From assembly GCA_023264635.1 (NCBI GenBank), contig JAHFLT010000001.1:35307-99306 (forward strand): a stretch of DNA of 64,000 nt. The letters are read 5' to 3'. This DNA comes from Candidatus Woesearchaeota archaeon. Its GTDB lineage: Archaea > Nanobdellota > Nanobdellia > Woesearchaeales > JAGVYF01. Made by a program: the position numbers and the translations under genes. This document shows positions 1,031-48,618 of this stretch, piece by piece. The notes below the pieces were generated by a model. The model was not told where the DNA came from, searched no databases, and was given only the letters and a program-made list of their open reading frames with translations. Positions within the stretch are counted from its first letter, which is position 1. Each line of letters opens with the position of its first letter.

Positions 1031-1292
1031 GCTCTGTAGAAAGTCTCGCTCTCGCTAGCCATTGCACCTCAGCTCGCATGTGCTGTTAATCTGCAGAGTG
1101 ACACAAAGGAGAACCGCTGTTCTCCTTGTGCAAGAAGCCTATGGCTTCTTTGCATTTCCCGGATGGAGCACAAAGAAATCTCGCAGATTTCTTGTGCAAG
1201 TTGCTTCGCAACTTTGCATCCCCTTTGTCACTTTTCCTGACTCTTGAAGGTGCTCGCCCTTAAGAGTGGCAATGGTACACTTTTTACAGAAC
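1031..1292. mobile_element. MITE-like non-autonomous element, type I, copy A
   Basis: About 262 bp, near-identical to copy at 5769..6030. Terminal inverted repeats GGCTCTGTAGAAAGT / ACTTTTTACAGAACC (right end has 2 mismatches). Flanking direct repeat GATGCCATA(T/G) at 1021-1030 and 1294-1302. Internal nested hairpins. Confidence 0.7.
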
Positions 1293-1338
1293 CGATGCCA
1301 TAGTAAGTTTTTTAATAGAATCAGATTTCCCATTATCC

Positions 1339-2106
1339 ATGAACATACCGTGCCCATACTGTCGCTATGATATAAGCGAAAAAGATATGCATCATAATAA
1401 TTATGCTCAGTGCGAGAAATGTCAGCTCCCTTTCCACAGGGAATGTTATGAGCTTAATGGAAAATGCATGTGTTTTGGCTGTGGAGGTAAGGCAGCTCTC
1501 CCCATTACGCAAGAATCGCAAAAATTACACCAAGAATCTGTAGACATCGTTGTGAGAAATCACTTTCTTGCAGCTCCAGATAAGGCTATCACAGCACACA
1601 TGCGTATTCTAGAGGATATTGTTACTGCCTATACAAAAGCAAGTGGAGAACATAATGCTAAAGTGCAGCATGCCATACAATCAGTCTGCAGTAATGCATT
1701 TCCCTCAACAATAACATCTCTCTACGTTTCTTATCTCACAGAATATAATCATTGTTGTGATGCGTATCAGAAGATAGCGACGAAAATGAAAGATGTAAAG
1801 CAGCCAGCAATTTTGGGAAATCCGTGCGATGTTTATTCAATGGGAGCCATGACAGGAGCAGCAGTAGGAGCTATTGTTAGTGCCTTGTTTGTCGGAGGAG
1901 GGGGATATCCCGCGTGGGACTATCTTATAAGTATGTTCATGGGCGCAGCTGTAACATGGTCTATGCGGCATCGTGCCAAAGAGTGGTATTCTGTAGAGAA
2001 GCTGTCAGCCGATTACCAGAAAGCTCACTTGCAGAAAGCGTATAAAAAAAAGCTGCTGAATCTTACTAAAAGATACGAACAAAAATTTCTCACTGCCCTT
2101 CCATAA
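1339..2106 (+). CDS. Zinc-ribbon (multiple CxxC) protein with C-terminal Gly-rich transmembrane segment, function unknown
   Basis: N-terminal CPYC...CEKC...CFGCGG motifs. C-terminal GAMTGAAVGAIVSALFVGGGG hydrophobic stretch. ORF of 255 aa. Confidence 0.45.
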   Translation: MNIPCPYCRYDISEKDMHHNNYAQCEKCQLPFHRECYELNGKCMCFGCGGKAALPITQESQKLHQESVDIVVRNHFLAAPDKAITAHMRILEDIVTAYTKASGEHNAKVQHAIQSVCSNAFPSTITSLYVSYLTEYNHCCDAYQKIATKMKDVKQPAILGNPCDVYSMGAMTGAAVGAIVSALFVGGGGYPAWDYLISMFMGAAVTWSMRHRAKEWYSVEKLSADYQKAHLQKAYKKKLLNLTKRYEQKFLTALP

Positions 2107-3460
2107 CCTTCATTACCGTCACAAGCACATCTTCTTTGAAATTACCCGCATAGAGTTGGACGCCTACAGGCACCCCATCAATCTTCCCAGCAGGTACAAC
2201 ACCTGCGCAAATCCCGGCAAGATTAGCAGGGATAGTGAATGCATCATAAGCATATGATGCTTCCGGGGATGGTATCTTTCTTAAGAGATGCGGCAGCTCT
2301 GGCGTTGTGGGCAATGCAATCACGTCTACTTCTTTGAATGCTTTCTCAAATTCTTCTTGTATTGCACGGCGTACTCGTAATGCTTTGCGGTAGTATCTCC
2401 CTTCATACTCTGCACAGCTTATCATCCTGCCACCTATGATGCGTCTCAGTACTTCTTCTTTGCATGATTCTTCAATGCGTTTCCCATATCTCCTTCCATC
2501 ATATTTTCTTGTCCCTGAGAAGAATTCTGTATACACAATGGGATAATACGACTCTACTGCCAATGCCACATACTTAAGGTCAATCTCTTTTAGTATAAGC
2601 TTCTGTTTCTTTGCAAAGTCCAGCACTTTTTCTTTGACTATCTTATAGATTTTTTTATCCTTGCATAGTTCCTCAAATACAGGAGAAAGCGCAATGGTCT
2701 TTGGTTGTTTTCCGAAGTGTGTGAATAGTGGCACCGACAGAGGATACATCATTGGATCATTGTCACTATATCCACTTATAACCTCAAGTAACAGTGCACA
2801 GCCATCTGTGTCAGGTGCGCATGGCGCAATTTGGTCAAGACTCATTGAAAGGTCTATAAGCCCATACCGCGACACTCTACCATATGATGGCTTTATGCCA
2901 ACAATACCACAATGCGATGCTGGATTTCGTATGCTTCCCCCAGTATCAGAACCCAGCGCCACATCACATAGCCCTGCAGCAACTGCGGCAGCGCTTCCTG
3001 AAGAAGAACCACCTGGAACATGCTTTGGTGATGTTGGATTTATTGTTGGGCCAAATGCACTTGTTTCTCCGGAGATACCACAGGCAAATTCATCCATATT
3101 AGTTATTCCTATAATGATTCCATCCTCTGCGAGTATTTTTTCAATCACATCTGCATTATATGTCCCGTAATAATTTTCGAGCGTTTTCGACGCACATGAT
3201 ATAGGCATTCCAATGACATTAATGTTCGCTTTTACTCCTACTGTCAGTCCGAATAGTTTCCCCACCTTTCCCTTTTTCCTCTTCCCATCAAGAGCGCGTG
3301 CTCTCTCCAGCGCTTCTTTCTCTGCTGTATAGAGAAATGCATTGATACGTGGATTCTCTTTTTTGATGAGTACAAGCTGCTGGTTCACATGCTCAATGCA
3401 TAACAACTTGCCTTCCTGTAATTGTGTGAGTAACTCTTTGGTTGCCATTAGTGTTACCAT
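2090..3460 (-). CDS. gatA: Glutamyl-tRNA(Gln)/Asp-tRNA(Asn) amidotransferase subunit A
   Basis: 456 aa. Amidase signature GGSSSGSAAAVAAG. Overlaps upstream gatC stop by 7 bp. Confidence 0.9.
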   Translation of the reverse strand: MVTLMATKELLTQLQEGKLLCIEHVNQQLVLIKKENPRINAFLYTAEKEALERARALDGKRKKGKVGKLFGLTVGVKANINVIGMPISCASKTLENYYGTYNADVIEKILAEDGIIIGITNMDEFACGISGETSAFGPTINPTSPKHVPGGSSSGSAAAVAAGLCDVALGSDTGGSIRNPASHCGIVGIKPSYGRVSRYGLIDLSMSLDQIAPCAPDTDGCALLLEVISGYSDNDPMMYPLSVPLFTHFGKQPKTIALSPVFEELCKDKKIYKIVKEKVLDFAKKQKLILKEIDLKYVALAVESYYPIVYTEFFSGTRKYDGRRYGKRIEESCKEEVLRRIIGGRMISCAEYEGRYYRKALRVRRAIQEEFEKAFKEVDVIALPTTPELPHLLRKIPSPEASYAYDAFTIPANLAGICAGVVPAGKIDGVPVGVQLYAGNFKEDVLVTVMKVMEGQ

Positions 3461-3750
3461 TTTTTTTTCTCAGCAACAATCTGGTTTTCTCTTGTTTTGG
3501 GGGCATTCTTCAACATACGGGAACTGAATTCTTTGTCGAACTCTTCGTCTTTGCTTTCTCTCGGATATTCTTCTTTACATTCTCTCTGGTTTTCTTTTTT
3601 GCATTCTATATTGTATTCCCTCATGTACGCTGGTCTCTCTGTGCCAACCTCGTATGGCAAGTGCTCTCCATTTCCTAAAGCGTTTAAAAATGCATCCATT
3701 ATCTGTTTTGCCTGTTGTTCAATTTTAGCTTTATCCATTATTTTATCCAT
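3454..3750 (-). CDS. gatC: Amidotransferase subunit C (divergent GatC)
   Basis: 98 aa between gatB and gatA, overlapping gatA start. C-terminal LKNAP motif and PAYMRE resemble GatC MKNAP / MRED motifs. Confidence 0.5.
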   Translation of the reverse strand: MDKIMDKAKIEQQAKQIMDAFLNALGNGEHLPYEVGTERPAYMREYNIECKKENQRECKEEYPRESKDEEFDKEFSSRMLKNAPKTRENQIVAEKKKW

Positions 3751-3754
3751 GAGC

Positions 3755-5140
3755 TTAGCATATCCTCCTTTTCAGCAGCTCCTTGACAGTGTCTGCTTTT
3801 GCTTTTCCTTTTGTCAAAGCCATGACTTTACCTATCAAGAAATTTAATGCCTTTTCTTCGCCAGCAAGATAATCCTTTACTGCTTCTGGATGTTCAGAGA
3901 CCACCTTTTGCGTAAGTTTACCTAACTCTTCTTCACTGCTTATAATGCCTAGTCCTTTTTGAGCTACGTATGCTCTCGGACTGAACGATTTCTCAATCAT
4001 CTGCTTGAGAAGCCCTTCTGCAGTCTGATCAGTAATTTCTTTTTTTACGACCATCTGCAGCAGCTCTGCAATATGTTTCTCATCAAACTCTACTTCCTGC
4101 AACGTTCGTTGTGTTACATTCATTATTTTCAGCAGCTCATGCCTGAGCCACTTTGCTGCGAGCAATGGGTCTACTGTCTTTGCAAGTTTTTCAAACAAAT
4201 CCGCAAGTGCGAGATCGCTTGCCAGGATTTTAGCATCCGTTGCTGATACTTTCATATTCTTGTATCGCTCAATCTTGATGTGCGGCTTCTCTGGAAGCAT
4301 CTTCTGGATGTTTTCCACAAGCGCATCAGTTATGTGAATTAATGGTAGATCTGGTTCCGGGATAAACATATAGTCAAGTGCAGTCTCTTTGGAGCGCATG
4401 AAGTGCGTCTTGCCATAGGTATCAGGAGGGCTTCTTGTGTGGGCAAAAACTTTTTCTCTCTGAGCTACTACCTCATGCTGCCTTTTTATTTCCCCGTCTA
4501 TTGCAAGCACGATAGTCTTAATTGAATTAACATTCTTGATCTCAACACGTGGGTGGTGCTCTGTGCTTACATTCACATCACATTTTATTCCCGCATTCTT
4601 ATTGACCGCTTTGAGATAAGATAATGTGGTCAGAAGGCTCTCCAGCCAATCTTTTACTTCTCCTGCACTTGTAAAATCAGGTTCAGTGACAATTTCAATC
4701 AGAGGATAGCCACTTCTGTTGTAATCCACAAGTCCTGTTTCAGGATCCCAACGTGCAGGATCCTCTTCCAAGTGACACTCCGTGATACCGACATCCAGAT
4801 ATTTCCCATGCTCACCTACTGGATGCGAGTACGTTCCCGAAATGGTGATCTGATATCCTTTGGGTAAATCAGGCCAGTCATAATGTTTTCGTTGAAAGAT
4901 AAGCTTTTTATTAATACTGCAGTCCAGCATTAATGCGCAAGTGACTACTTTTTCCACTGCTTCTTTGTTAGGCAACATGGGTTTTGAACCTGGCTGCCCT
5001 GTGCAGCGCGGGCAAACAGTTGTATTTGGTGCAGCATCTTGATCAACTGTGCATCGACAGAATAATTTCTGGTGAGTTTTGTGCATCGCCAGATAACCAT
5101 GAATCTCAAGCCCGATTCTTGCCATGACACTTTTCCCCAT
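3755..5140 (-). CDS. gatB: Glutamyl-tRNA(Gln)/Asp-tRNA(Asn) amidotransferase subunit B
   Basis: 461 aa. N-terminal MARIGLEIHGYL typical of GatB/GatE family. Start abuts stop of upstream gene at 5140. Confidence 0.9.
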   Translation of the reverse strand: MGKSVMARIGLEIHGYLAMHKTHQKLFCRCTVDQDAAPNTTVCPRCTGQPGSKPMLPNKEAVEKVVTCALMLDCSINKKLIFQRKHYDWPDLPKGYQITISGTYSHPVGEHGKYLDVGITECHLEEDPARWDPETGLVDYNRSGYPLIEIVTEPDFTSAGEVKDWLESLLTTLSYLKAVNKNAGIKCDVNVSTEHHPRVEIKNVNSIKTIVLAIDGEIKRQHEVVAQREKVFAHTRSPPDTYGKTHFMRSKETALDYMFIPEPDLPLIHITDALVENIQKMLPEKPHIKIERYKNMKVSATDAKILASDLALADLFEKLAKTVDPLLAAKWLRHELLKIMNVTQRTLQEVEFDEKHIAELLQMVVKKEITDQTAEGLLKQMIEKSFSPRAYVAQKGLGIISSEEELGKLTQKVVSEHPEAVKDYLAGEEKALNFLIGKVMALTKGKAKADTVKELLKRRIC

Positions 5141-5721
5141 TACACCTTCTCTTTCAGCTTAAGCTCAAAACAGACATCTTCCAGTTTCTTGAGGTCATAT
5201 TTGATGGAGTCAAATTTTCCGCGGAGTTCCCCATCCCTAATATCGAACTTCAAGAGCAGCTCATATAAACTGTCAAGAAAATCCTTTATGACAAACGGCT
5301 CTTTGTACTTTCCTTTGCTTGCTGCAGCGATTGCTTTCCGCGACAGTTCACCGGAAAGATCACACAGTCCAAGGAGATAATAATCGGTCTCTACTCCAAG
5401 CTCAGATCTCGTCATTAATTTGTGGTCTCGCACAAAGTGGTAGTAAAGCATTGCCTCTACATATTCCTGGATTGCAACCTTGTAGCTGCCTTGATGATAC
5501 ATTTTCTGATTCTTTTTAACATACTCATTCAAGGTCTTGAGCTGTTTCTGCATCTCTTTGACAAGCGTCTCTGCATCTTTCATATCATCACGATGCACAG
5601 CGTAAATTGTTTGTTTTGTCAGTTTAAGCACATCGCGGGATTTCTTGATTAGTTCCTCTCTCTGGCTGTCAAACTCCTGCGACTCTGTCAGCATATCTTC
5701 GAAATCATGTTTAGTTATCAT
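5140..5721 (-). CDS. Translin-family-like helical protein (start trimmed to first ATG outside the MITE)
   Basis: Listed ORF 5140..5817, but residues 1-16 are encoded by MITE copy B, so the first non-element Met at 5721 is taken as the start. YYHFVRDH...LLGLCDLSGEL resembles the translin YYRFHEHW core. Stop shares a base with the gatB start codon. Confidence 0.4.
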   Translation of the reverse strand: MITKHDFEDMLTESQEFDSQREELIKKSRDVLKLTKQTIYAVHRDDMKDAETLVKEMQKQLKTLNEYVKKNQKMYHQGSYKVAIQEYVEAMLYYHFVRDHKLMTRSELGVETDYYLLGLCDLSGELSRKAIAAASKGKYKEPFVIKDFLDSLYELLLKFDIRDGELRGKFDSIKYDLKKLEDVCFELKLKEKV

Positions 5722-5768
5722 GCAGAGCAACAGAAAAAGTGCATTATATATAGGTTTCTGTGGTGGAG

Positions 5769-6030
5769 GCTCTGTAGAAAGTCTCGCTCTCGCTCGCCAT
5801 TGTACCTCAGTTCGCATGTGCTGTTAGTCTGCAGAGTGACACAAAGGAGAACCGCTGTTCTCCTTGTGCAAGAAGCCTATGGCTTCTTTGCATTTCCCGG
5901 ATGGAGCACAAAGAAATCTCGCAGATTTCTTGTGCAAGTTGCTTCGCAACTTTGCATCCCCTTTGTCACTTTTCCTGACTCTTGAAGGTGCTCGCCCTTA
6001 AGAGTGGCAATGGTACACTTTCTACAGAGC
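5769..6030. mobile_element. MITE-like non-autonomous element, type I, copy B
   Basis: 262 bp. Perfect 15-bp terminal inverted repeats GGCTCTGTAGAAAGT...ACTTTCTACAGAGCC. Perfect 10-bp target duplication CTGTGGTGGA at 5758-5767 and 6031-6040. Confidence 0.8.
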
Positions 6031-6143
6031 CTGTGGTGGATGCTATGCGTGATGAGATGTTGGATGTGGTGGTGCTCAGTGATGATGCTGTGATAACGAC
6101 TCTGAGCAAAAGTTTATATCATACACCATGAATCACCAAGTGC

Positions 6144-7683: not shown

Positions 7684-9990
7684 ATGAACCGCGAAAAGTG
7701 GGAAGTTTCCTTAGAAGACTTAGTCTGGATAGCAGATCCAACAGAGTTCACATTTGCAAATACAGTTGAGATACATCCACCTGTTAATCCTATTGACATT
7801 GTCAAAGGCCAACATGATGCCAAACAGACGCTTCTGTCAGCAATAAAACTTCGCCAAAATGCAATCCTTATAGGGCCTGCTGGGTGCGGCAAATCACTGC
7901 TGGCAAAAACAGTGGCTGAACAATTCTCACTGGAAAATGCGAACAAGATAAAGCTCTATGACCAATGCCTCATCTATAATTTGGAGAATGAATTTGAACC
8001 GGATGTGATTAGCCTTCCGACGCCACTCGGAAAGCAATTTGCCGAAGACTTCAGGACATTCATAAAATATATTCGTGCAGGTGCCCACTACAGGCCTACT
8101 GGCCATGGAAATCCTCAGGATACGAAAATAACGTTCCGCACACATTCATTTTTTTCCACAACTGAATATTCAGGAACGCTAAAGCAACTTTTGGAAGGTG
8201 TGGCCAAGCAGAATGGGTTGACTATAGTGCCTGATGCTGATGTACTTTTCAAACATAGTATCAGGATGCTTGATGCGCCAGTGCTTACTGATGGAAAAGA
8301 TTACTTTACGTTGCGAATCTTGTGCCCTCATTATGAATTTGACGAACCTCGCAATGGAAAATCATTTATCCTCGACAATTTAGTGCAGACCTATAAATAT
8401 TATCCTAAAGTGCTTCGCTATTTTGGTGATATGGCTCGTGAAGTTCGTGAAACTGAAGAAATGAAAGGATTATTTGACATGGAGCAGCCATTTATAAAAA
8501 AAATGCGCGAAGAGAAATACATGATTAACGTTATTGTCAATAACGCTGAGACCGTTGGAGTCCCTGTGGAATATATTGAGAATCCGAGTATACAGAACAT
8601 TATCGGAGAAGCTGGCCATGATGCATATAATCTCCGCCCAATGCATATGCGTATCAAACCAGGCAAGCTCCATCGCGGTAATGGGGGTATCGTCATTATA
8701 GATGAGCTTATCACTGTCTTGCAGGATCAATACATGCGTAACTTTTTGCTTACTGTACTTAACGACAAGCAAGGCCGGATCGGGGGTGGCGCTGGCTTGA
8801 GTGGTGGAGGGACAAGCGCTGGCGTTGAGACAAAGCCTGTTGCAGCGGATTGCATCGTCATTGGATGCGCAAATGACGATGTATTCAAGTACATGACAGA
8901 CAAGATTGCCAGACGTTTCCAGCACAAGGTGAAATTCCATACAACTATGGACAACACATTGGAAAATAGGATGGGATACGCAGAATTTATTGCTTATGAA
9001 ATCAATAAATACAATAATGACTCCTCAAATCAAGTAAAGCTTTCTCATTGTACTCCTGAAGCAGTTGCTGCTGTTGTCGAGTGGGGCGTTCGCTTTGCCC
9101 AGAATGCTGCGCATGGCAAGAAAAAGCTCACTAATGTGCTTGATCCAGTGGCATTACTTGTGAAATCAGCAGCGATGAAGGCATCACAAGAGAATGCACC
9201 ACTTGTTGAGCGTATCCATGTCCAAGCTGCTCGCGAGGAGTTGCGGCGGTTGTCGACACAGATGCAGACAGACTATCTTACTTATATTAATGAGGGTCTC
9301 ATATCCATAGAGGTGGATGGTTTCCGAGAGCGTATAGTTAACGGGCTTGTTGTTATTAAAGATAACTATGGACTTGTTGCATATGGATTTCCTACACGAT
9401 TAATAGCTACAGCATCGCAAGGCAAAGGCGGATTTCTCAGCAGTGAAAAGGAGGCCGGGCTTTCAGGAAAAATTATGCTGAAAACGCATGAAATAATTAA
9501 GACTTACTTTAATGCAACCTATGGGAAAGCATTGGCAAAAGTAAATTTATCAGTCAGTTTCGCACAGAGCTATTCATCGATAGATGGCGATAGCGCATCG
9601 ATAGCGACTGTCATCGCACTTAAAAGTGCTCTTAGTGGCATGCCTGTAGATCAAGGACTGGCTGTTACAGGTTCGATGAATGAGCTGGGAGAAATCCAGC
9701 CAATAGGCGGCGTCAATGAGAAGATAGAGGGATTCTATGCGGTTTGTAAGCAAAAAGGATTCACCAGAAAGCAAGGTGTCATCATTCCCCCGAGCAATGT
9801 TCCGGATCTAATGTTAGCAAAAGATGTTATAGATGATGTCTGCGCTGGAAACTTCCATGTGTATTCTGTCAAACATCTGGATGAAGCAGTGGAGCTTATG
9901 TTTGCCAAGCCAGCACAGGACGTTGACAGATGCATACGGAAAAAGCTTGAGGAATACTGGAGGGAAGACAGTGTCACGGGTAAACGCTGA
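7684..9990 (+). CDS. Soluble LonB-like AAA+ serine protease with about 250-aa insertion between Walker A and Walker B
   Basis: Walker A GPAGCGKS, Walker B GGIVIIDE. C-terminal Lon protease domain DGDSASIA (Ser) and GGVNEKIEG (Lys). No hydrophobic transmembrane segment in the insert, unlike canonical archaeal LonB. RBS-like AGGAAG upstream. Confidence 0.8.
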   Translation: MNREKWEVSLEDLVWIADPTEFTFANTVEIHPPVNPIDIVKGQHDAKQTLLSAIKLRQNAILIGPAGCGKSLLAKTVAEQFSLENANKIKLYDQCLIYNLENEFEPDVISLPTPLGKQFAEDFRTFIKYIRAGAHYRPTGHGNPQDTKITFRTHSFFSTTEYSGTLKQLLEGVAKQNGLTIVPDADVLFKHSIRMLDAPVLTDGKDYFTLRILCPHYEFDEPRNGKSFILDNLVQTYKYYPKVLRYFGDMAREVRETEEMKGLFDMEQPFIKKMREEKYMINVIVNNAETVGVPVEYIENPSIQNIIGEAGHDAYNLRPMHMRIKPGKLHRGNGGIVIIDELITVLQDQYMRNFLLTVLNDKQGRIGGGAGLSGGGTSAGVETKPVAADCIVIGCANDDVFKYMTDKIARRFQHKVKFHTTMDNTLENRMGYAEFIAYEINKYNNDSSNQVKLSHCTPEAVAAVVEWGVRFAQNAAHGKKKLTNVLDPVALLVKSAAMKASQENAPLVERIHVQAAREELRRLSTQMQTDYLTYINEGLISIEVDGFRERIVNGLVVIKDNYGLVAYGFPTRLIATASQGKGGFLSSEKEAGLSGKIMLKTHEIIKTYFNATYGKALAKVNLSVSFAQSYSSIDGDSASIATVIALKSALSGMPVDQGLAVTGSMNELGEIQPIGGVNEKIEGFYAVCKQKGFTRKQGVIIPPSNVPDLMLAKDVIDDVCAGNFHVYSVKHLDEAVELMFAKPAQDVDRCIRKKLEEYWREDSVTGKR

Positions 9991-10003
9991 TGAAATTGAA
10001 GGA

Positions 10004-10543
10004 ATGGAGAAGCAATCAAAATTCCATACATTCCGTTTTCTTCTGGTTGCGTTCACAGCATATTTTGCAATAAATTGGTATGTTAAGAAGAGCGATGAGC
10101 CGTATAAAGAACCAGCATCGTTGTATGGCAGTCTTGAAGAAGCTATTGCTGGCCAGCTGCCCAGATATGGTTATGCTGCGGTGAAGATAGATGATACTAT
10201 TGGACCATATGACCCAGTCATAAAGGGAAAACAGATGCTCGGCTATGTCCATGATGATGCAGATACATTGCAGCTAGATGGGAAAGATATAGGCTACATC
10301 GTTCACGGTGTTGTCTATAATGCTGCTGGTAGAAAAGTGGCAAGATTGACAACAGGAGCTGTAGGTTATGAGATTTATTCCTATGATAACAAGAAACTGG
10401 GAACACTGACAGAAAAAAAACTTTTGAATTCTTCTGGTGCTGTGCTCGGAACGCTAGGTCCAAAGGCTGCTGTCGTTATGGACAATGGAGATAACTTAAC
10501 AGGGATTATCACAGGATATGATTATTCACGGAAGAATCTGTGA
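10004..10543 (+). CDS. Membrane-anchored protein with Tyr/Gly-rich repeats, co-operonic with Lon-like protease
   Basis: ATG 13 bp after the Lon stop, in frame with listed ORF 9833..10543. N-terminal FRFLLVAFTAYFAINWY transmembrane helix. Repeated G-Y/V motifs. Stop lies inside the target duplication of MITE copy C. Confidence 0.45.
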   Translation: MEKQSKFHTFRFLLVAFTAYFAINWYVKKSDEPYKEPASLYGSLEEAIAGQLPRYGYAAVKIDDTIGPYDPVIKGKQMLGYVHDDADTLQLDGKDIGYIVHGVVYNAAGRKVARLTTGAVGYEIYSYDNKKLGTLTEKKLLNSSGAVLGTLGPKAAVVMDNGDNLTGIITGYDYSRKNL

Positions 10544-10549
10544 GAGAAG

Positions 10550-10690
10550 GCTCCATCCAAAAATTCTCGCTCTCACTCGGCTCAGCGGCTTCTCGCCTTT
10601 GCATTTCCCAGATATCATCCCTTTGTCAGCACAAAATGAGCTACTGCTAAAGCTCGACCTTAGGCTGCTGAGCGCTTTTTTGGATGGAGC
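10550..10690. mobile_element. MITE-like non-autonomous element, type II, copy C (shares termini with the IS at 26799..27981)
   Basis: 141 bp. Termini GCTCCATCCAAAAAT...TTTTTTGGATGGAGC match the IS terminal inverted repeats. Perfect 10-bp target duplication GTGAGAGAAG at 10540-10549 and 10692-10701. Confidence 0.8.
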
Positions 10691-10849
10691 CGTGAGAGAA
10701 GAAACGAATAATGGGGAGAAACAAACTTTATTCTAATAGACAGCTTACACTAAAAAAAATCCCTCCCCGTTTGGGGAGAGTTTTTTCCTCAGAACTCAAA
10801 TCGGGGGTAAGAGGAGGAACATGAAAAAAAAAAGGAAAAAAAATTCCCA

Positions 10850-13717: not shown

Positions 13718-14482
13718 TTATATAAAGTACCTAACTGCATTTGTGAAAATCTGTAAACCGGCACCTTCTTTTGGCAGGTTTTTAGTCCACAGAGGATGTT
13801 GGTATGTGTCAATGAATCGCTCAGGATGTGGCATTAATCCGAAGATTCTGCCACTCTCATCACAAATTCCGGCAATATCATCTAATGAGCCATTAGGATT
13901 ATAAGGAAATTCTCCTTTGGCAGAAAATCCATTCTTCGCATAGCGCAGGGCAATCATATCACGCTTAGTCAATTCGTTCACTGTATTATCTGACGCATAG
14001 AATCTTCCTTCTCCGTGTGCAATCGGTAACTCTATCTTGTCTATTCCCTGCGTAAAAATGCACTTTGATGAGCCAATGAGCTCAACCCATCTACATTCAT
14101 ACCGTGCACTTGTGTTGTGCGTCAATGCCACAGTCCGTGCGCCGTATTCCCCAGTAATGGCAGGAAGCAGCCCGAGGTTAGTCATCACCTGAAATCCGTT
14201 ACATATACCTATGATTAATTTGCCTACAGCAATGAACTGCAACAGTTCCTCCCACATAGTGTTGCGCAATCTGTTCGCCAAAGCCTTGCCTGATCCAGTA
14301 TCGTCTCCATAAGAAAATCCTCCGGGAAATGCTAAGAGGTGATATGTCTCTAATTTTTTTTTATTCTCGATTAATTCGGTGATATGCATCTGTTCTGTCA
14401 GAGCTCCAGCTCGTTCGAAGGCATATTTGGTCTCTTCATTGCAATTGATTCCATACCCAGTTAGCACAAGTGCTTTTACCAT
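13718..14482 (-). CDS. purQ: Phosphoribosylformylglycinamidine synthase, glutamine amidotransferase subunit
   Basis: 254 aa. Class I glutamine amidotransferase (ICNGFQ Cys, HPER His region). Overlaps purL stop. Confidence 0.85.
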   Translation of the reverse strand: MVKALVLTGYGINCNEETKYAFERAGALTEQMHITELIENKKKLETYHLLAFPGGFSYGDDTGSGKALANRLRNTMWEELLQFIAVGKLIIGICNGFQVMTNLGLLPAITGEYGARTVALTHNTSARYECRWVELIGSSKCIFTQGIDKIELPIAHGEGRFYASDNTVNELTKRDMIALRYAKNGFSAKGEFPYNPNGSLDDIAGICDESGRIFGLMPHPERFIDTYQHPLWTKNLPKEGAGLQIFTNAVRYFI

Positions 14483-17343
14483 TTATTAAACCTAACCTTA
14501 TACACCCTTTCAAGTGCAGTTAGAGTGGTATTAATGACAAGCTTGCTTCCATCGCGTACAAAAAACATATGTGGCGTAACGTACCCTATACGGAAATACA
14601 TACACTCGAGCATTTTCTCAAAGGCGCCTGCATTCTTCTGTGAAACACTTACAATGAATCGCCCGGGTGATTCTGAGAATAGTGTTTTATACTGTGGCAA
14701 ATGTAGTTGGTTTATGTCACCATGAACGCCTTTTCTCCCAGCGATTGCACATTTTGCCAGACTTACAGCCAGCCCACCTAATCCAACAGCGTGTGCACTT
14801 TCAACCAGACCTTGCTCGATTGCTTTCTCGAGTTTGCCATAAAGTTGAATTGTTTCATCTAACCTGACCATTGGAACATTCTTGCCGACAACATCATTCA
14901 TTGCATAATACTCTGAGCCGCCCAATTCATCTCTTGTTTTTCCGATAATATAAAGGACATCTCCTGATTTTTTGAAATCCATACTGATACATTTTCTGAT
15001 ATCAGAAATAATACCGATAGAGGAAATAAGTATCGTCGGTGGGATAGAAAGGGATATTTTATTTTCATATTCATCAAATCCTCTGAAATCATTATGCATG
15101 CTGTCCTTTCCGGATATGAAGGGGGTACCATACATTACAGCAGTATTATAGCATGCTTCAGCTGCACGTTTCAGCTGGCCCAATCTTTTTGGATCGTTAG
15201 GACTGCACCAGCAGAAATTGTCCAGCAGTGCTGTCTGTTCCAGCTTTCCACCAACAGCAATTATATTTCTAACTGCATAGTCAATGGCACAGGCAGCCAT
15301 CCAGTATGCGTCTATATCCCCATACGATGGAAAAATGCCCTGTGATAATGCAATTCCTCGATAGGAATCTAATAACGGCCTCGCCACAGTAGCATCCGCA
15401 TTAACCCTTCCTTTTCCAATGAGTGGTTTTAGCACAGAGCCACCCTGAACTTCATGATCATACTGCCGAGAGATAAATTCACGGCTGCATATGTTTGCAC
15501 GGTTGAGCATTTCTGTTAACACGTGTGTCAAATCTTTCGGCACTTTCAGTATGGGCTCTCTGTGCCTCGCAAGTTCATCGGTAGAAGCTACTTTCTTTTT
15601 GGGTAATCCATTGTGCAGAAAATCTAGTTCGAGGTCCATCACTGTTTCATTGCCATACTTTACAGTACATTTTCCACTGTGTGTAAATTTCCCGATAGTC
15701 GTTGCCTCTACTCCGTGCTTTTTCATTACACTAAGAAATGCCTCTACTCTCTCAGGAGGCACAGCAATTGTCATACGTTCCTGCGATTCACTCACCCAGA
15801 GCTGCCATGGCGCCATGCCAGCATATTTTGTCGGTATATTTTCCAATTGGACAAAGCAGCCATTGCTCTCTTTTGCCATCTCTGCAATAGAGCAGGACAA
15901 TCCACCAGCACCGTTATCTGTAATGCTATTATAAAGTCCTCTTGCTTCAAGCAAGGCGTCTGCCATTTTTTTCTGGGTGATTGGGTCTCCTATTTGCACT
16001 GCAGTAGCTGGACTTCCTGCATTGAGCGCTTCTGAAGAGAATGTTGCACCGTGTACCCCATCCACTCCAACTTTACCCCCTATCATCAAGATGTAGTCTT
16101 CGGGCAGTGCCTTTTTTTCGTGACTTGGTTTTCCTGCAACAGTTCGCGGGATGAACCCCACAGTACCTACAAAAACCAATGGTTTTGCACGATACTGTTC
16201 ATTAAAAAGCATAAATCCCTGTGTAGTGGGAATGCCTGAGCAGTTTCCACCAACACGCACTCCTTCAATAACTCCTTCCATGATTCTTTTTGGTGATAGC
16301 ATCAGAACATTTTTTGTGCGATAAAGTTTTTTATTATCTTCGGGTATTCCGAAACAGAAGCCGTATGTGTTGATAATGGGTTTTGCGCCAGTTCCAAAGC
16401 CAAGACAATCACGATTAACACCAAGGATACCTGTGATAGCACCTCCGAAGGGATCCAATGCAGACGGACTGTTATGGGTCTCTACTTTATGTGTAACAAG
16501 ATACTTGTCATCAAAAACTAGTGCGCCGGAATTGTCAACGAAAACAGATGGACAAGTCACATGTCCCCACTTCATGTTCAGTATCCTTTCTGTTGCTCCT
16601 TGGATATACGTCTTGAACAATCCTTCTCTATTATTCATTTGTGCTGCAAAAATTCGGTGCTTACAGTGCTCAGACCATGTTTGTGCAAGGGATTCAAGTT
16701 CAACATCAGTTGGCTTCCTTCCTTTGTTTCGGAAATAGTTTTGAATGGCTTTCATCGCATCTCCATCAAGAGCAAGAGGACCATTGATTCCCTTATTGCC
16801 TATTGCAACGAGTGCAGCATCGCTCACGTCCAAGTCAATGAGTGCTGCTGCAGTGGATTGTAATGGCATTTGTAAAGATACTTTTGGGATAGTAATGCAC
16901 AACGGCTCGTTTCTCTTCCTTATCGTAATTTTGTTAATAAGCGGATTGGCGAATTGGGTAGCTATTTTTTGGATCTCACTATATGTTCCACCAACAAGAT
17001 ACATTGTTTGTGAAGAATAGACATTCACTGGCATGCACAGGCAATCCTCAATTGTTTGGTGTGCAGTGGCGCCAATATTATCAGTAACTCCGGGCAAGAA
17101 TCCAACATCTACAACCCATTCAAAGTTGTGTATGCAGTAGTCATCAATGCTATACTTTTCTATAACCGGATTAATGAACAGCAAAGCACATTGCTCGAGT
17201 TGTTCCTTGAAGAGATTTTTATCTATTGTATATGTATCAGTCAATGCGATGATTCTGGCTTCTATGCCCAAACCAGTTATCTTTCTTTCTCTCATTGCTG
17301 CACGTGTATCTGTAATTATGGGAAAGACTTCAATACGGTGCAT
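14476..17343 (-). CDS. purL: Phosphoribosylformylglycinamidine synthase PurL with two N-terminal PurS-like domains (PurS-PurS-PurL fusion)
   Basis: Listed ORF extends to 17490, but its first 31 codons are MITE copy D, so the start is taken at the next ATG, 17343 (MHRIEVF). N-terminal about 150 aa carry two PurS-like units ending NPVIEKYSI and NPLINKITI. PurL core follows. Confidence 0.8.
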   Translation of the reverse strand: MHRIEVFPIITDTRAAMRERKITGLGIEARIIALTDTYTIDKNLFKEQLEQCALLFINPVIEKYSIDDYCIHNFEWVVDVGFLPGVTDNIGATAHQTIEDCLCMPVNVYSSQTMYLVGGTYSEIQKIATQFANPLINKITIRKRNEPLCITIPKVSLQMPLQSTAAALIDLDVSDAALVAIGNKGINGPLALDGDAMKAIQNYFRNKGRKPTDVELESLAQTWSEHCKHRIFAAQMNNREGLFKTYIQGATERILNMKWGHVTCPSVFVDNSGALVFDDKYLVTHKVETHNSPSALDPFGGAITGILGVNRDCLGFGTGAKPIINTYGFCFGIPEDNKKLYRTKNVLMLSPKRIMEGVIEGVRVGGNCSGIPTTQGFMLFNEQYRAKPLVFVGTVGFIPRTVAGKPSHEKKALPEDYILMIGGKVGVDGVHGATFSSEALNAGSPATAVQIGDPITQKKMADALLEARGLYNSITDNGAGGLSCSIAEMAKESNGCFVQLENIPTKYAGMAPWQLWVSESQERMTIAVPPERVEAFLSVMKKHGVEATTIGKFTHSGKCTVKYGNETVMDLELDFLHNGLPKKKVASTDELARHREPILKVPKDLTHVLTEMLNRANICSREFISRQYDHEVQGGSVLKPLIGKGRVNADATVARPLLDSYRGIALSQGIFPSYGDIDAYWMAACAIDYAVRNIIAVGGKLEQTALLDNFCWCSPNDPKRLGQLKRAAEACYNTAVMYGTPFISGKDSMHNDFRGFDEYENKISLSIPPTILISSIGIISDIRKCISMDFKKSGDVLYIIGKTRDELGGSEYYAMNDVVGKNVPMVRLDETIQLYGKLEKAIEQGLVESAHAVGLGGLAVSLAKCAIAGRKGVHGDINQLHLPQYKTLFSESPGRFIVSVSQKNAGAFEKMLECMYFRIGYVTPHMFFVRDGSKLVINTTLTALERVYKVRFNKW

Positions 17344-17398
17344 ACCCACCTGGGGAAGAACAACTACATAAAAATTGTGGATTTCAGAGGTAAAACAG

Positions 17399-17538
17399 GT
17401 TCCATCCAAAAAAGCGCTCAGCAGCCTAAGGTCGAGCTTTAGCAGTAGCTCATTTTGTGCTGACAAAGGGATGATATCTGGGAAATGCAAAGGCGAGAAG
17501 CCGCTGAGCCGAGTGAGAGCGAGACTTTCTACAGAGCC
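17399..17538. mobile_element. MITE-like hybrid element, copy D
   Basis: One end GGTTCCATCCAAAAAA (type II / IS-like terminus, 1 mismatch). Other end ACTTTCTACAGAGCC (type I terminus). Imperfect flanking repeat TAAAA(A)CA(A)G. Lies 55 bp upstream of purL start. Confidence 0.65.
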
Positions 17539-17636
17539 ATAAAAACAAGTAGATTTATAAATAGCACATTATTCTCTGCTCCCATAGAAGGTTTACGAAT
17601 TCTTCGTAAATACCTTCAAATTAGGTGAAAAACAAC

Positions 17637-17810
17637 ATGGGATTTGGCGGACAAGGTGGTGGCGGTTTTAGACGCAGCTTTGGTCCTCGTGAAATGCATC
17701 CAGCAACATGTGCTGCATGCGGTCAGGAGACTCAGGTGCCGTTTAAGCCATCAGGAGATAGACCAGTCTATTGCCGTGATTGCTATCAAAAGCAAAAAGC
17801 GCAACAGTAA
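17637..17810 (+). CDS. Small RGG-box / zinc-ribbon protein
   Basis: MGFGGQGGGGFRR Gly/Arg-rich N-terminus followed by CAACGQ...CRDC zinc ribbon. Listed ORF starts 17625 and an internal Met at 17637 also fits. Confidence 0.4.
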   Translation: MGFGGQGGGGFRRSFGPREMHPATCAACGQETQVPFKPSGDRPVYCRDCYQKQKAQQ

Positions 17811-26561: not shown

Positions 26562-26753
26562 TGATTCTTTGCGTAGAAGGAAATGATACCCTGCGAAATA
26601 ATCATCATCTTCCCATTCCTGTGCATGTTCAGCATATACAGAATTTTCCATTTCCAGACGGGCAAAACAAATTGAGCATAAGAACATCAAGCTTTCCTCA
26701 AATGCAACTTCTTGGATCGCCTGCCTGCGGCGGCAAACCTGGCAGTTACGCAT
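26553..26753 (-). CDS. Possible small zinc-ribbon protein (CxxC...CxxC)
   Basis: Listed ORF 26553..26810 takes its first codons from the IS terminus. Internal Met at 26753 gives a 66-aa CQVC...CSIC protein. Weak support. Confidence 0.2.
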   Translation of the reverse strand: MRNCQVCRRRQAIQEVAFEESLMFLCSICFARLEMENSVYAEHAQEWEDDDYFAGYHFLLRKESLR

Positions 26754-26798
26754 TTTTCTTACTAGTGGAATGTTGCTTTTAAGGTTTTCTACAGCTTT

Positions 26799-27981
26799 GG
26801 CTCCATCCAAAAATAGATTAACTTCCGAGTTCTAAGTAAAATAAAATGGGCAAGCCGAATATTCGGCTCAACCCACAAGTAGAATCGGTTCGTAACCGAA
26901 TTCTGCTCAATAAGGCCACTGAGATTCTTCTCTCTTGCGCCTTGTTGCTTCCCGAACCTTCTCACGTGGGTAAGGGAAGAATACCATACGATTACCGCGT
27001 CGTATTGGTATTATGTATACTCCGTATCCTGCTCCGCAAGAGTTATGCGGACTATGAAACGGAGATGCGGTCAGATAAGAGGTTGCATGAGATGTTAAAA
27101 ATTGACAAGCTACCATGTAAAAGCACCGTCAATAATTATGCATCTCAATTTACGTTGACCTTCTTATCCGAGTTCAACAAGAAGCTTATAGACAACTGGA
27201 TTAAAAAACCTGTCGATTTGCTTCTTGATGCTTCAGGCATTAGGCTAGTGGGCAGAAGCATCTGGTTCTGCCTCAAAACCAGACAAAAGATTCAGAAGAA
27301 AGACTGCGATAAAATACACATAGCAGTAAGTTTATGCAGCTTACTTATAGTTAACTTCAGAATCTCTAATTCTAATAGGAATGACTCACCATTCCTCAGA
27401 AAACTTCTTAGGCCATTTAGTTCTTTGGGTTTATTTCTCGTCGATAAAGGTTACAGCAACGAAACAAATGCCAATTTTGTGGCAAATAAAAAAGGTGCAT
27501 TCTTTTCACCATTTAAGGTGAATGCAAGACCTTCGGCATTTAGTCTTTGGAAAAAACTATACACACTATGGGAAACCTTCCATAGTCTTTGTGAAGGGAT
27601 TTATCACCAAAGATCCAAAGTGGAAGCTGTTTTTTCCGCATTGAAAAATAGGTATGAAGACCAGCTTTACTCGACGAGATGGTACATGATGAGACGGGAA
27701 ATGGCAATGCGGTTTATTGCCTATAACGTGAGAATTATTGTGGGAATACAAATAGCAAGAGAGAAGAACATACCTTTGTGGGTTAGAGCCTAAAAAAACG
27801 GTTTCTGCCAAGAAAACGTCATAGCGATAGCTCTATTCATTTTGCCGTTACTGGCGCCGTACAGGCAGGAATTGTCCCTTCGGAAATGCTTGCGAGACTT
27901 TTCTACCAGAAAATCCATCGATTACCTATTGCAACGGCAAAACCTTTAACGAAGGTTAGAACTCATTTTCTGGATGGAGCC
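26799..27981 (+). mobile_element. Insertion sequence (DDE transposase, IS4/IS5-superfamily-like) with terminal inverted repeats and target-site duplication
   Basis: Left terminus GGCTCCATCCAAAAAT (26799-26814). Right terminus reverse-complements to GGCTCCATCCAGAAAAT (27965-27981). Flanking direct repeat CTACAGCTTT at 26789-26798 and 27981/27982-27990 (one-base ambiguity). Single transposase ORF inside. Confidence 0.8.
26846..27793 (+). CDS. DDE-type transposase
   Basis: 315 aa. Candidate catalytic residues in LLLDASGIRL, FLVDKGYSNE and VEAVFSALKNRYED. Typical DDE_Tnp_1 arrangement. Confidence 0.8.
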   Translation: MGKPNIRLNPQVESVRNRILLNKATEILLSCALLLPEPSHVGKGRIPYDYRVVLVLCILRILLRKSYADYETEMRSDKRLHEMLKIDKLPCKSTVNNYASQFTLTFLSEFNKKLIDNWIKKPVDLLLDASGIRLVGRSIWFCLKTRQKIQKKDCDKIHIAVSLCSLLIVNFRISNSNRNDSPFLRKLLRPFSSLGLFLVDKGYSNETNANFVANKKGAFFSPFKVNARPSAFSLWKKLYTLWETFHSLCEGIYHQRSKVEAVFSALKNRYEDQLYSTRWYMMRREMAMRFIAYNVRIIVGIQIAREKNIPLWVRA

Positions 27982-28132
27982 TACAGCTTTTTTGTGGGTT
28001 TGCCTTCAGTTCGTTCCGCTTGCAACGGTGAACCCCGGAAAAGACTGAACCGACGTTCTCTGTGTTGAACACAGATGCTTTTTCTTATACCCTCATGAGG
28101 CGTAGACTCCTTCGTTTTTTCCCATACCGAAG

Positions 28133-28526: not shown

Positions 28527-28631
28527 CGGGGTGGATGGGATTTGAACCCATGACAAACCGCGCATGGAAGGAAAGCTTCCACACTTCACGGGCTTCAGCC
28601 GTGTGCTCTCCCAGGCTGTAGCTACCACCCC
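28527..28631 (-). tRNA. tRNA-Phe (GAA) with about 30-nt intron-like insertion between anticodon arm and T arm
   Basis: Reverse strand folds as acceptor GGGGTGG/CCACCCC, D arm GCT..AGC, anticodon stem CACGG/CCGTG with loop CTGAAGC, and T arm ATGGG-TTCAAAT-CCCAT. About 35 nt separate the anticodon stem from the T stem instead of about 5. Confidence 0.65.
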
Positions 28632-38300: not shown

Positions 38301-38431
38301 GCAGGGGTAGCGAAGCCTGGTCAAACGCGCAGGACTCAGAGCACATCACCTGGCTGAGTGCGATACTTAAGACCAGGTGTGAGAGATCCTGTCTCTTAGT
38401 GGGTTCGAGGGTTCAAATCCCTTCCCCTGCA
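38301..38431 (+). tRNA. tRNA-Leu (CAG) with about 45-nt canonical-position intron
   Basis: Acceptor GCAGGGG/CCCCTGC. Anticodon stem CAGGA/TCCTG with loop CTCAGA then insertion after position 37. Long variable arm. T arm GAGGG-TTCAAAT-CCCTT. Discriminator A. No encoded CCA. Confidence 0.7.
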
Positions 38432-39144
38432 TTTTTCTCTTTTTTTTCTAAATCTGTTTGTGAATTGTCCTTTATTGCTTTAGGCTGTACGGGAAGGGAA
38501 AGGCGCTGTACGATGGTTTTGTATTTTTCGCTAAGGTGGGATGTTACATCAGCAACGCATTTTACAGGAAGGAACAGCACGATATTAGTGATCCCTTTCC
38601 AACATGTATAGACTAACATAGATAGCATGCCATTTATTACAAGCTGCTCATAGGGAGTGCCATCACGAGGGAAATAAGCTCGATAGTACAAGGTAGCCCA
38701 TGTCAATGCAAACTCCGTCATGAGTTCTCCTGTCAGACCAATCCATCTGCCATAGCGTCGTGGTCCTTCAGGTTCTGCTGTCATTGCGATGATGGACTTG
38801 CCTATTACATTATCTATAGGACAATATAAGAATAATGATACGTTCGTCCGTAATGCAGAGAGCACGAATCCTTCGGGTATCCCTTTAATGACTTGTACCA
38901 ACTCGTCAAGACACTCTTTTCCAAAGTGGTTAAGGACTTTCCTCGTAGAAGGCACAAGCAGTTTTTTATCATAGTGAATTACAGACGGACATGCATATGC
39001 AGAACACTTATCCTCATTGCTTGCAACACAATTGATGTGGTACTTACTTTCACATGTTGGGCATGCGACAAGTGGGATAGTATCTTCTAATGGATACTTG
39101 CAATAGCCGCAATGCAATGTGACAATAGTCTCAAGCTCTCCCAT
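38413..39144 (-). CDS. Zinc-finger (RING/PHD-like Cys/His cluster) protein with hydrophobic C-terminal half
   Basis: CGYC...CPTC...H..C...C....C at N-terminus. Hydrophobic segments later. 3-prime end overlaps tRNA-Leu by 19 bp on the opposite strand. Confidence 0.45.
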   Translation of the reverse strand: MGELETIVTLHCGYCKYPLEDTIPLVACPTCESKYHINCVASNEDKCSAYACPSVIHYDKKLLVPSTRKVLNHFGKECLDELVQVIKGIPEGFVLSALRTNVSLFLYCPIDNVIGKSIIAMTAEPEGPRRYGRWIGLTGELMTEFALTWATLYYRAYFPRDGTPYEQLVINGMLSMLVYTCWKGITNIVLFLPVKCVADVTSHLSEKYKTIVQRLSLPVQPKAIKDNSQTDLEKKEKNAGEGI

Positions 39145-41926: not shown

Positions 41927-41943
41927 TTCGTTTCCTCCGGTTT

Positions 41944-45868: not shown

Positions 45869-45880
45869 GAAGGGTGACTG

Positions 45881-46189
45881 ATGCAAAAAGCACGAATCAA
45901 ACTAGCAAGCACAGACATAGAAAAGATTAACAAGACATGTACCTACATTAAGGATATTGCTGACAAGACGGGAGTCACCATGTGTGGTCCTATTCCTTTG
46001 CCGACGAAGAAGCTGAAGCTTACTACACGCAAATCGCCGTGTGGCAATGGTAAGGCAACATGGGAACGTTACGAAATGCGCATACACAAACGCATTATTG
46101 ATTTGGGTATGGATGAACGTGCCTTGCGTTTGGTCATGAGAGTACCAATCCCGGAAGGATTAGACATCCAGATTGATATGTTGGAATAG
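45881..46189 (+). CDS. rps10: Ribosomal protein uS10
   Basis: 102 aa directly downstream of tuf, the conserved archaeal tuf-rps10 arrangement. T-rich terminator-like tract follows. Confidence 0.9.
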   Translation: MQKARIKLASTDIEKINKTCTYIKDIADKTGVTMCGPIPLPTKKLKLTTRKSPCGNGKATWERYEMRIHKRIIDLGMDERALRLVMRVPIPEGLDIQIDMLE

Positions 46190-46288
46190 GAGTACACCTT
46201 TTCTTTTCAGTTTTTTTTTCACCCGAAAGAGTTAAATAGTCGGGATATTTAAATTATATAAAAAAGGCTTTTAAAAAAAAGGTGAAGT

Positions 46289-47323: not shown

Positions 47324-47350
47324 CTATTTTTCTTACCAATTAAAATTTAC

Positions 47351-48358
47351 TTAGTTTCTTTTTTTTTTGATTTTCTTTGATAACTTTGCTACTTCTTCCA
47401 GCTCTGCTGCTGCCTGCTGGATTGCCTGGTCATTAGCTTCCAATGTCGGAATTGGTTCTGCTCCTTTCTCAGACTCCATAATACCGGGAAGGAATATGTC
47501 TGTAATGCCTTTGTGTGGCTCATCTTCTGCTTCCTCAATGTTCTCTATAAGAAAAAGCTTACGTTTCTCTTCTTCTTTCTGTGTTTTTTTACTGAAAGCG
47601 TGTTTCAATGAAAGCTTTATGGCATGGTCGTTGCATACAGATAAAACATATTTTGGATTATTTTGTTGTTCACGGATGATATGTTTTAGTAGGGCTTCGT
47701 CAAATGGCTCAATGCCATTCCCACCAAGCGCCTCAATCCTAAGTTGCAGGAATTCCTTAGTCTCAGCAAAACTCAGACCATGCAATACGATGCCGAGCTT
47801 ATCTTGTCCTAAGGTAGATACAATGCTTCTACGCATCTCATCTATGGGACCAGCTACAATAAGTTGTGTGCGGAGGGGTGAATCAAAGATATGTTTAAGT
47901 ATCAGAATGTCTGGTTTTGAGATTTGATGTGCTTCATCCAAAAGGATAATCATACTTTTCGCGTGCTGCCGTGGTGTTAGAAACTCAACAACATTACCTA
48001 TATGCAGTTTTCTCCATGGCCTTGTTAACCATCTTTCAAAAAAATTAAGTTGAGGATACACCAAAGTCTTTATGAACTCGTGCTCAGTAAGATTCCTGGC
48101 ATTCACATAAATGACGCAGAATCTGTTCTTGTAATTCTGCAATTGGTTGCGCAGCCAGCGTAATAAGGTCGTCTTCCCAAGCCCTTCCTCACCAAGAAGG
48201 GTACCGTATTTGTAGTTTTCTATGAGAAAAAGATTGAGACGCTGGCGTTCCTTTTCATATCCTACAACAAAATTTTCTACTGGTTCGAATATCTTGTCCT
48301 GGAATGGATTATTACGCCATCCCAATGCCTTATCCCACTCAAGAACAAATTGCCGCAT
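47351..48358 (-). CDS. Archaeal-type AAA ATPase (Arch_ATPase/PF01637-like)
   Basis: FVVGYEKERQRL...LLGEEGLGKTTLLRWL Walker A. ILLDEAH Walker B. Confidence 0.55.
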   Translation of the reverse strand: MRQFVLEWDKALGWRNNPFQDKIFEPVENFVVGYEKERQRLNLFLIENYKYGTLLGEEGLGKTTLLRWLRNQLQNYKNRFCVIYVNARNLTEHEFIKTLVYPQLNFFERWLTRPWRKLHIGNVVEFLTPRQHAKSMIILLDEAHQISKPDILILKHIFDSPLRTQLIVAGPIDEMRRSIVSTLGQDKLGIVLHGLSFAETKEFLQLRIEALGGNGIEPFDEALLKHIIREQQNNPKYVLSVCNDHAIKLSLKHAFSKKTQKEEEKRKLFLIENIEEAEDEPHKGITDIFLPGIMESEKGAEPIPTLEANDQAIQQAAAELEEVAKLSKKIKKKRN

Positions 48359-48402
48359 GTGTCATTAAGCAAATGGGTTTTTATAAACCTTTCCTAGAGG
48401 AA

Positions 48403-48618
48403 GCTCCATCAAAAATTCTCGCTTCCTCCTGGCTCAGCAGCTTCTCGCCTTTGTATTTCAGGCGATAGCTGACACAAAGGAGAACTATTGTTCTCCTTGT
48501 GCGAGAAGCCTATGGCTTTTTTGCATTTCCCGGACGTCGTCCCCCCATTGTCAGCACAAAATGGGCTACTGCTAAGGCTCGACCTTAGGTTGCTGAGCGC
48601 TTTTTTTTGATAGAGTCC
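48403..48618. mobile_element. MITE-like composite element, copy E (degenerate termini)
   Basis: Ends resemble type II / IS termini (GCTCCATCAAAAAT ... TTTTTTTTGATAGAGTCC). Centre carries the type I hairpin core (GTGACACAAAGGAGAAC...GTTCTCCTTGTG). Sits 44 bp upstream of the ATPase start. Confidence 0.6.

Follow-up and report, generated by a model that had tools for sequence, protein, structure and literature searches.

Probable promoter targeting by IS5-like insertion sequences and their miniature derivatives in a Woesearchaeota genome

A 64,000-nt stretch of contig JAHFLT010000001.1 from a Candidatus Woesearchaeota archaeon (assembly GCA_023264635.1, positions 35,307 to 99,306 of the forward strand; this whole stretch is the window in the following) harbors five transposable elements of the miniature inverted-repeat type (MITEs A to E) and one full-length insertion sequence (IS). 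In all likelihood, these MITEs and their parent ISs are targeted to promoters, and insertion in a fixed register at the upstream edge of the transcription factor B recognition element (BRE) and the TATA box explains why the elements end about 45 nt away from start codons. Read outward from the element, a 9-bp target-site duplication (TSD) directly abuts the sequence RAAANNTTTWWAAA (RAAA-NN-TTTWWAAA) at four of the five MITEs as well as at the IS. At A, B, D, E and the IS, the motif (at most two mismatches) is confined to one side, and either element end can face the promoter. The elements were located by repeat finding and direct reading of the sequence:

1030..1293, plus strand: MITE A, 264 bp, type-1 terminal repeats GGCTCTGTAGAAAGT
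5768..6031, plus strand: MITE B, 264 bp, type-1 terminal repeats
10549..10691, plus strand: MITE C, 143 bp, type-2 terminal repeats GGCTCCATCCAAAAA
17398..17538, minus strand: MITE D, 141 bp, type-2 end at 17398 and type-1 end at 17538
about 48402..48618 (ends ±1), plus strand: MITE E, about 216 bp, type-2 repeats (degenerate)
26799..27981, plus strand: IS, 1183 bp, terminal repeats GGCTCCATCCAAAAA and GGCTCCATCCAGAAA

The predicted BRE/TATA motifs next to them are the following:

1303..1316, plus strand: motif at A, GTAAGTTTTTTAAT, offset 10, 2 mismatches, -36 from ATG 1339
5745..5758, minus strand: motif at B, next to the left duplication, GAAACCTATATATA, offset 10, 2 mismatches, -37 from ATG 5721
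17548..17561, plus strand: motif at D, right flank, AGTAGATTTATAAA, offset 10, 2 mismatches, promoter of 17637..17810
48380..48393, minus strand: motif at E, next to the left duplication, GAAAGGTTTATAAA, no mismatches, -35 from ATG 48358
26776..26789, minus strand: motif at the IS, next to the left duplication, GAAAACCTTAAAAG, offset 10, 2 mismatches, -36 from ATG 26753

The ends of E are known to ±1, and its motif lies at offset 9-10. The null chance of an abutting motif amounts to 0.023 per intergenic site, and for at least four of five elements P is 1.5e-6. About 24 of the 63 window genes carry the same motif, which starts there between -34 and -38 from the ATG and most often at -36. In the consensus promoter of Pyrococcus furiosus, counted from the transcription start, the BRE extends from -36 (RRAAA) to -32 and the TATA box from -30 (WTTTAAAW) to -23 (PMC6640164). 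The window motif fits this consensus when it is measured from the ATG. Given this fit and the position at -36 in about one third of the genes, the abutting motif is a predicted BRE/TATA core promoter of leaderless mRNAs and, as far as can be judged from sequence, such mRNAs seem to dominate in this organism. A minority of genes (e.g., 17637, 44582 and 46289) has a leader with a GGTGA or GGAGG Shine-Dalgarno sequence. The sum of a 9-bp duplication and a motif start at -36 yields the spacing of about 45 nt between element and ATG. BRE and TATA box lie outside of the duplication and their sequence varies from site to site; the promoter is thus host DNA. The BRE of the targeted promoters resembles that of ordinary promoters in the window.

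The distance to the nearest start codon is 45 nt for A (ATG 1339), 46 nt for B (5721, minus strand), 54 nt for D (17343, minus strand) and 43 nt for E (48358, minus strand). The initial annotation of this DNA had placed four of five MITEs 44-55 bp from a start, and its values of 46, 47, 55 and 44 bp are identical to ours when counted inclusively. It had also pointed out that this distance spans BRE and TATA, in agreement with a motif from -36 to -23 and a duplication from -45 to -37. All five MITEs that it listed are real, but the IS at 26799-27981 had been missed as a sixth element. The starts it had chosen next to B and D hold as well: public gene calls yield the same proteins for all four genes (255, 193, 955 and 335 amino acids), PurL homologues start in the alignment at the residue encoded at 17343, and the Translin Pfam domain is fully covered from residue 20. 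The open reading frames (ORFs) 14476..17490 (purL) and 5140..5817 run into D and B, respectively, and this extension is an artefact, just as suspected. In the reconstructed pre-insertion window, a random intergenic 9-mer lies 43-55 nt from a start with a probability of 0.092; for at least four of five elements this gives P = 3e-4, for an interval that was picked post hoc.

MITE D makes up a special case. It does reside 54 nt from the purL start at 17343, as had been noted before, but the promoter it abuts belongs to the gene at 17637. According to the rule, the TATA box of purL (TTTTTATG, -31 to -24 from 17343) should be located 10 nt closer to D than it is, while the 57-residue gene at 17637 features a leader of about 50 nt with an AGGTGA Shine-Dalgarno sequence. 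D abuts the divergent promoter of the 17637 gene, and the 55 bp to purL are incidental.

The same register is found outside of the window, where unrelated metagenomes supplied about 90 independent junctions. Ten loci of one transposase relative, together with a metagenome scan for the left end of the IS, provided 73 unique type-2 junctions. The motif (at most two mismatches) starts at offset 10 in 25 of them and at offsets 9, 11 and 12 in 3, 9 and 4, respectively, while each of the remaining offsets from 1 to 125 is represented by zero to two junctions. No comparable peak appears in these junctions for the reverse orientation of the motif. A TATA octamer is present at offset 16 in 26/73 junctions, as opposed to zero to five away from offsets 16-18. 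About half of the type-2 junctions carry the motif, which matches the prediction of one motif side per insertion, and both IS ends can face it. An outward ORF follows 25 of 26 motif junctions; the distance to its ATG is 44-49 nt in 11 cases and at most 60 nt in 16.

The type-1 repeat of MITEs A and B is present on an 888-bp IS from a distantly related lineage in metagenome locus L122. For this IS and its relatives, 20 junctions were obtained, 8 of them with the motif at offset 10, and the ATG distances recorded for type-1 motif junctions are 44, 44, 45, 45, 45, 70 and 120 nt. Complete insertions with matching duplications and with the motif on one side only occur in L062, L089/L141, L131, L135 and L143. 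Stacked insertions were also observed. In L118 (9051-9267) the order is promoter-TSD-MITE-TSD-IS, and a 184-bp type-2 MITE and the IS are parted only by the repeated 9-mer TAACACTAC. Two IS copies are situated 9 bp apart in L067 (1-60) in an IS-9 bp-IS arrangement. In each of L118 and L067, one 9-mer target is hit repeatedly. In L122 (105-141) a type-2 IS end directly abuts the type-1 IS end. The left junctions of L073 and L114 share the 9-mer TGAAAGCGA at the IS end and differ in the DNA beyond; the L114 flank terminates in a hairpin (GTCAACTC...GAGTTGAC), which may belong to a third type of element at the same target.

The initial annotation had favored target preference over a donated promoter, and this view is strongly supported by the host-owned promoter motif, by the fact that either end can face it and by the common register in both sets of outside junctions. 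The argument it had drawn from the different ends facing the genes at A and B is weaker than stated, because the outermost 15 bp form the same inverted repeat at both ends.

The five MITEs measure 141-264 bp, contain only short spurious ORFs and thus amount to five non-coding copies within 64 kb. Terminal inverted repeats of 15-16 bp are found at both ends of A, B and C. Two repeat types can be distinguished: type 1 (GGCTCTGTAGAAAGT), carried by A, B and a single end of D, and type 2 (GGCTCCATCCAAAAA), carried by C, E and the opposite end of D. The duplication has a fixed length and is a perfect 9-mer for A (GATGCCATA at 1021-1029 and 1294-1302), B (TGTGGTGGA at 5759-5767 and 6032-6040) and C (GTGAGAGAA at 10540-10548 and 10692-10700, overlapping the stop codon of 9971..10543). 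It is imperfect for D (GGTAAAACA and ATAAAAACA, 6/9 identical) and for E (CTAGAGGAA and CTAG-GGAA, 8/9 matching with one indel). A and B are 98% identical. D equals C exactly over 124 bp and is a hybrid, in which the type-1 and type-2 parts meet in a common subterminal TCTCGCTCTC; it arose either by recombination or conversion between both MITE families or by mobilization of a hybrid element. E combines ends of the C type with one hairpin module in common with A and B and is the oldest and most decayed copy. Altogether, the interiors are modular and their predicted folds are long hairpins. An outward promoter borne by the elements was considered as well and rejected, as no MITE contains an internal BRE/TATA match with at most two mismatches.

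An Rfam search of the window matched only two tRNAs and returned no family for the MITEs. A 22-position MITE-end pattern gave only five chance matches in a scan of genome contigs, all of them bacterial, and a scan of viral contigs with the 15-mer repeat gave 51 single chance matches. In public assemblies of this organism, contigs begin or end within MITEs A and B (window positions 1143 and 1254; ends of Logan contig L057). Logan contig L058 breaks exactly at the outer edge of the E duplication (window position 48393); this break might reflect a polymorphic insertion with an empty-site allele. On the 3' side of MITE C, a terminator-like hairpin (CTCCCC/GGGGAG followed by T6, 10760-10795) resides between convergent genes for a beta-flower protein and FtsZ, and C is wedged between this hairpin and the stop codon of 9971..10543.

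The full-length IS in the window was found via a 16-nt match to the type-2 repeat. It is flanked by the 9-bp duplication TACAGCTTT (26790-26798 and 27982-27990), has a terminal repeat in common with MITEs C and E and is likely the autonomous partner of the type-2 MITEs. A candidate autonomous partner thus exists for both types: type 2 is represented by the IS of the window and type 1 by the 888-bp IS in L122 together with its relatives in L131-L143. The IS encodes one transposase:

26846..27793, plus strand: transposase, 315 amino acids, DDE_Tnp_1 (PF01609) with 62.6 bits

DDE_Tnp_1 is the only Pfam match of this protein, and its best NCBIfam model is that of the IS5 family (NF033579, 88 bits, under the cutoff of 140). 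The signature Y-x2-R-x3-E-x6-K is present at residues 253-267, with IYHQRSKVEAVFSALK visible in the alignment. The score below the cutoff and an identity of only 24-30% to annotated IS5-family transposases led us to file the protein as IS5-like, outside of any named group. The protein has hundreds of relatives in metagenomes at 72-90% identity, and transposase relatives carry the labels Woesearchaeota or Nanoarchaeota. The L122 transposase (274 amino acids; PF01609 39.3 bits, NF033579 117 bits with the cutoff at 140) shares about 29% identity with that of the window over an aligned segment of 101 residues.

The five repeats are probably non-autonomous derivatives of two related IS5-like ISs and mobilized in trans by the transposases of the latter. 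The transposase probably cuts with a 9-bp stagger at -45 to -37, after which the duplicated 9-mer would adjoin the upstream edge of BRE and TATA; insertion could take place in either orientation and would leave the core promoter intact. It is conceivable that recognition occurs by docking of the transposition complex on TFB and TBP at BRE/TATA, which would then function as a protein ruler and supply the combined, oriented BRE-plus-TATA specificity without extra cost. We lean towards such docking on the TFB/TBP-bound promoter over direct read-out of the DNA, although we hold this with about even confidence. The pay-off may consist in a near-neutral 'safe harbour' within a gene-dense genome.

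Direct read-out is a possibility that we take seriously while judging it rather doubtful. BRE and TATA would then resemble a transposase site inside the element's own terminal repeat, and no host protein would be necessary. Targeting of sequences that resemble the inverted repeat has been described for IS30. All terminal repeats of both lineages share GGCTC (positions 1-5) and RAAA (+11 to +14), and the RAAA of the target is located at +10 to +13 from the joined end. Furthermore, the IS repeat runs into a weak TATA box at the canonical -37 from the transposase ATG, and the sequence at C combines GAAAC with a weak A/T stretch in the absence of a gene. The repeats of the MITEs, however, lack a TATA-like part, and yet TATA is strongly conserved at the targets. 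The target motif is also indistinguishable from the general promoter consensus and thus offers no sign of any additional specificity, and a one-sided recognition site of 14 bp would be unusual for a symmetric DDE transpososome.

Random insertion with subsequent purifying selection, by which survivors would pile up upstream of promoters in a compact genome without any targeting, appears improbable. Several observations would suit it: only about 10% of the reconstructed window is intergenic (6411/61736 nt), the pre-insertion spacer that holds E comprised 74 bp, the window contains no intragenic MITE, and without promoter-cutting sites the statistic for 43-55 nt yields only P = 6e-4, again for the post hoc interval. 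Selection, however, fixes a minimum distance and not an exact one. It would not lead to 25 junctions at offset 10 compared with zero to two at each offset from 13 to 125, nor to tandem insertions that re-use the identical 9-mer. Farther upstream of the targeted promoters, intergenic stretches of 30 to about 400 nt were left unused, and at A, B and the IS a free spacer of about 100-400 nt is unoccupied. As random insertion plus selection cannot produce a register with single-nucleotide precision, we conclude that the elements are promoter-targeted. That the elements are retained near genes for a function, be it as outward promoter, terminator/insulator or regulatory RNA, is highly unlikely: type-2 ends do carry outward T5-T8 runs similar to archaeal terminators, long hairpins are present and the Correia elements of Neisseria set a precedent for MITE-borne promoters (PMC10969869), but the promoter motif lies outside of the duplication and is owned by the host, full-length ISs and unrelated MITE interiors (L118) share the same register, and the elements have no Rfam family.

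Several points weigh against promoter targeting. MITE C is an exception: only a half-motif (GAAACGAATAATGG at 10701-10714, five mismatches, GAAAC plus a weak A/T stretch) is found there and no gene follows downstream. Together with L136, L139 and L145, it belongs to the roughly one fifth to one third of insertions that are devoid of the motif. The definition of the motif came from the very junctions in which it was counted, with subsequent confirmation on the promoters of the window and the published consensus. Contigs from metagenomes frequently are chimeric between IS copies, and near-duplicates may exist among the junctions. All observed insertions are survivors in assembled genomes, and selection surely removes intragenic ones, which inflates the promoter share. 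Finally, a type-1 IS is absent from the window.

A few bacterial elements, according to their own authors unique among prokaryotic transposons, and eukaryotic retroelements are known to transpose in a promoter-directed manner. Ty3, Ty1 and Dictyostelium TRE5-A achieve 'safe-haven' integration in gene-dense genomes by reading the transcription initiation complex. In the case of Ty3 this is TFIIIB, whose components TBP and TFIIB-like Brf1 are homologous to TBP and TFB in archaea. These are retroelements that employ integrases and target Pol III genes; there is no sequence relationship to the elements described here, for which docking is proposed. A further comparable system is the IS903-like group of the IS5 family, the members of which have one DDE_Tnp_1 transposase, a length of about 0.9-1.2 kb, termini starting with GGC and a 9-bp duplication. 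Our elements share the DDE_Tnp_1 transposase with its Y-R-E-K signature, the size, the GGC termini and the 9-bp duplication, but differ from IS5 family members in the identity of 24-30% and in the NF033579 scores of 88 and 117 bits against the cutoff of 140. Promoter targeting has, to our knowledge, not been described for IS903.

In bacteria, TnGBS integrative conjugative elements as well as ISLre2 and ISKra4-group insertion sequences target sigma-A promoters and insert 15-17 bp upstream of the -35 box; those elements with symmetric inverted repeats do so in both orientations (PMC3942029). Docking on the transcription initiation complex has been proposed by the authors (PMC3942029), and our docking idea mirrors this proposal for TnGBS as well as the case of Ty3. 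The same study mentions nothing comparable for archaea, apart from speculation on an AT-rich target of ISH6 (PMC3942029). Along with yeast Ty3, these elements represent the closest precedents. In the bacterial case as in ours, DDE transposons insert upstream of a core promoter that stays intact, and the short distance to it is fixed. TnGBS and ISLre2, however, have Mutator-like (p-MULT) transposases and not an IS5-like DDE_Tnp_1 enzyme, so that we see an analogy and not membership; in addition, they leave a gap of 15-17 bp to the -35 box, whereas the 9-bp duplication in our elements abuts the archaeal BRE without any gap. Correia elements are short, non-coding, present in many copies, bounded by terminal repeats and mostly located just upstream of genes (PMC10969869). 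The window MITEs resemble them in all these traits. Correia elements possess promoters of their own (PMC10969869) and a TA target, while the promoter is host-owned and the register to BRE/TATA fixed in the case reported here. We found no earlier description of a promoter-targeting IS or MITE from archaea in the open-access literature, and promoter targeting in archaea is not mentioned in a review of prokaryotic MITEs and a 2026 survey of archaeal ISs. We tentatively suggest that an IS5-like family widespread in DPANN archaea may use the TFB/TBP-bound promoter as a landing mark and insert one 9-bp step upstream of the BRE; archaea would thereby have their first counterpart to targeting by Ty3/TFIIIB and TnGBS/sigma-A, and the transposase superfamily its first case.

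An archaeal case based on the TBP/TFIIB-type machinery common to archaea and eukaryotes would complete a three-domain picture and would permit a simple biochemical test of the ability of a transposase to read the TBP/TFB complex. Targeting would explain how mobile elements can persist in DPANN archaea, the genomes of which are small and gene-dense, and leave the genes undamaged. The junctions mark promoters, point at the dominance of leaderless mRNAs in an uncultured lineage, explain assembly breaks and flag ORFs that are artificially extended into elements. If landing on TFB/TBP holds true, it would also represent a natural tool for promoter-directed integration and promoter mapping in uncultured archaea.

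The genes that face the elements in the window are as follows:

1339..2106, plus strand: Prok-RING protein, downstream of A
ATG 5721, minus strand: translin-gatB-gatC-gatA operon, downstream of B
17637..17810, plus strand: zinc-ribbon gene, 57 amino acids, CxxC...CxxC, missing from public gene calls
26553..26753, minus strand: zinc-ribbon ORF, 66 amino acids, CxxC...CxxC, missing from public gene calls
ATG 48358, minus strand: AAA ATPase gene, facing E

The ATG of the 66-residue ORF (26753) lies 45 nt from the left end of the IS, and the ORF overlaps the 3' end of a Lon-like gene by 9 nt. The best non-self match of PurL is 59% identical and labelled Woesearchaeota; the collections contain no close relative, and an exact look-up of FtsZ gave no match. 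The labels of the PurL match and of the transposase relatives mark the host as a probable member of the DPANN archaea. The Prok-RING protein next to A has a paralogous Prok-RING-like protein in the window (38413-39144 in addition to 1339-2106). Two LonB-like proteases are likewise encoded (7684-9990 and 24105-26561). The two tRNA genes (28527-28631, minus strand, 105 nt; 38301-38431, plus strand, 131 nt) were found by Rfam and missed by ARAGORN, and both presumably contain introns.

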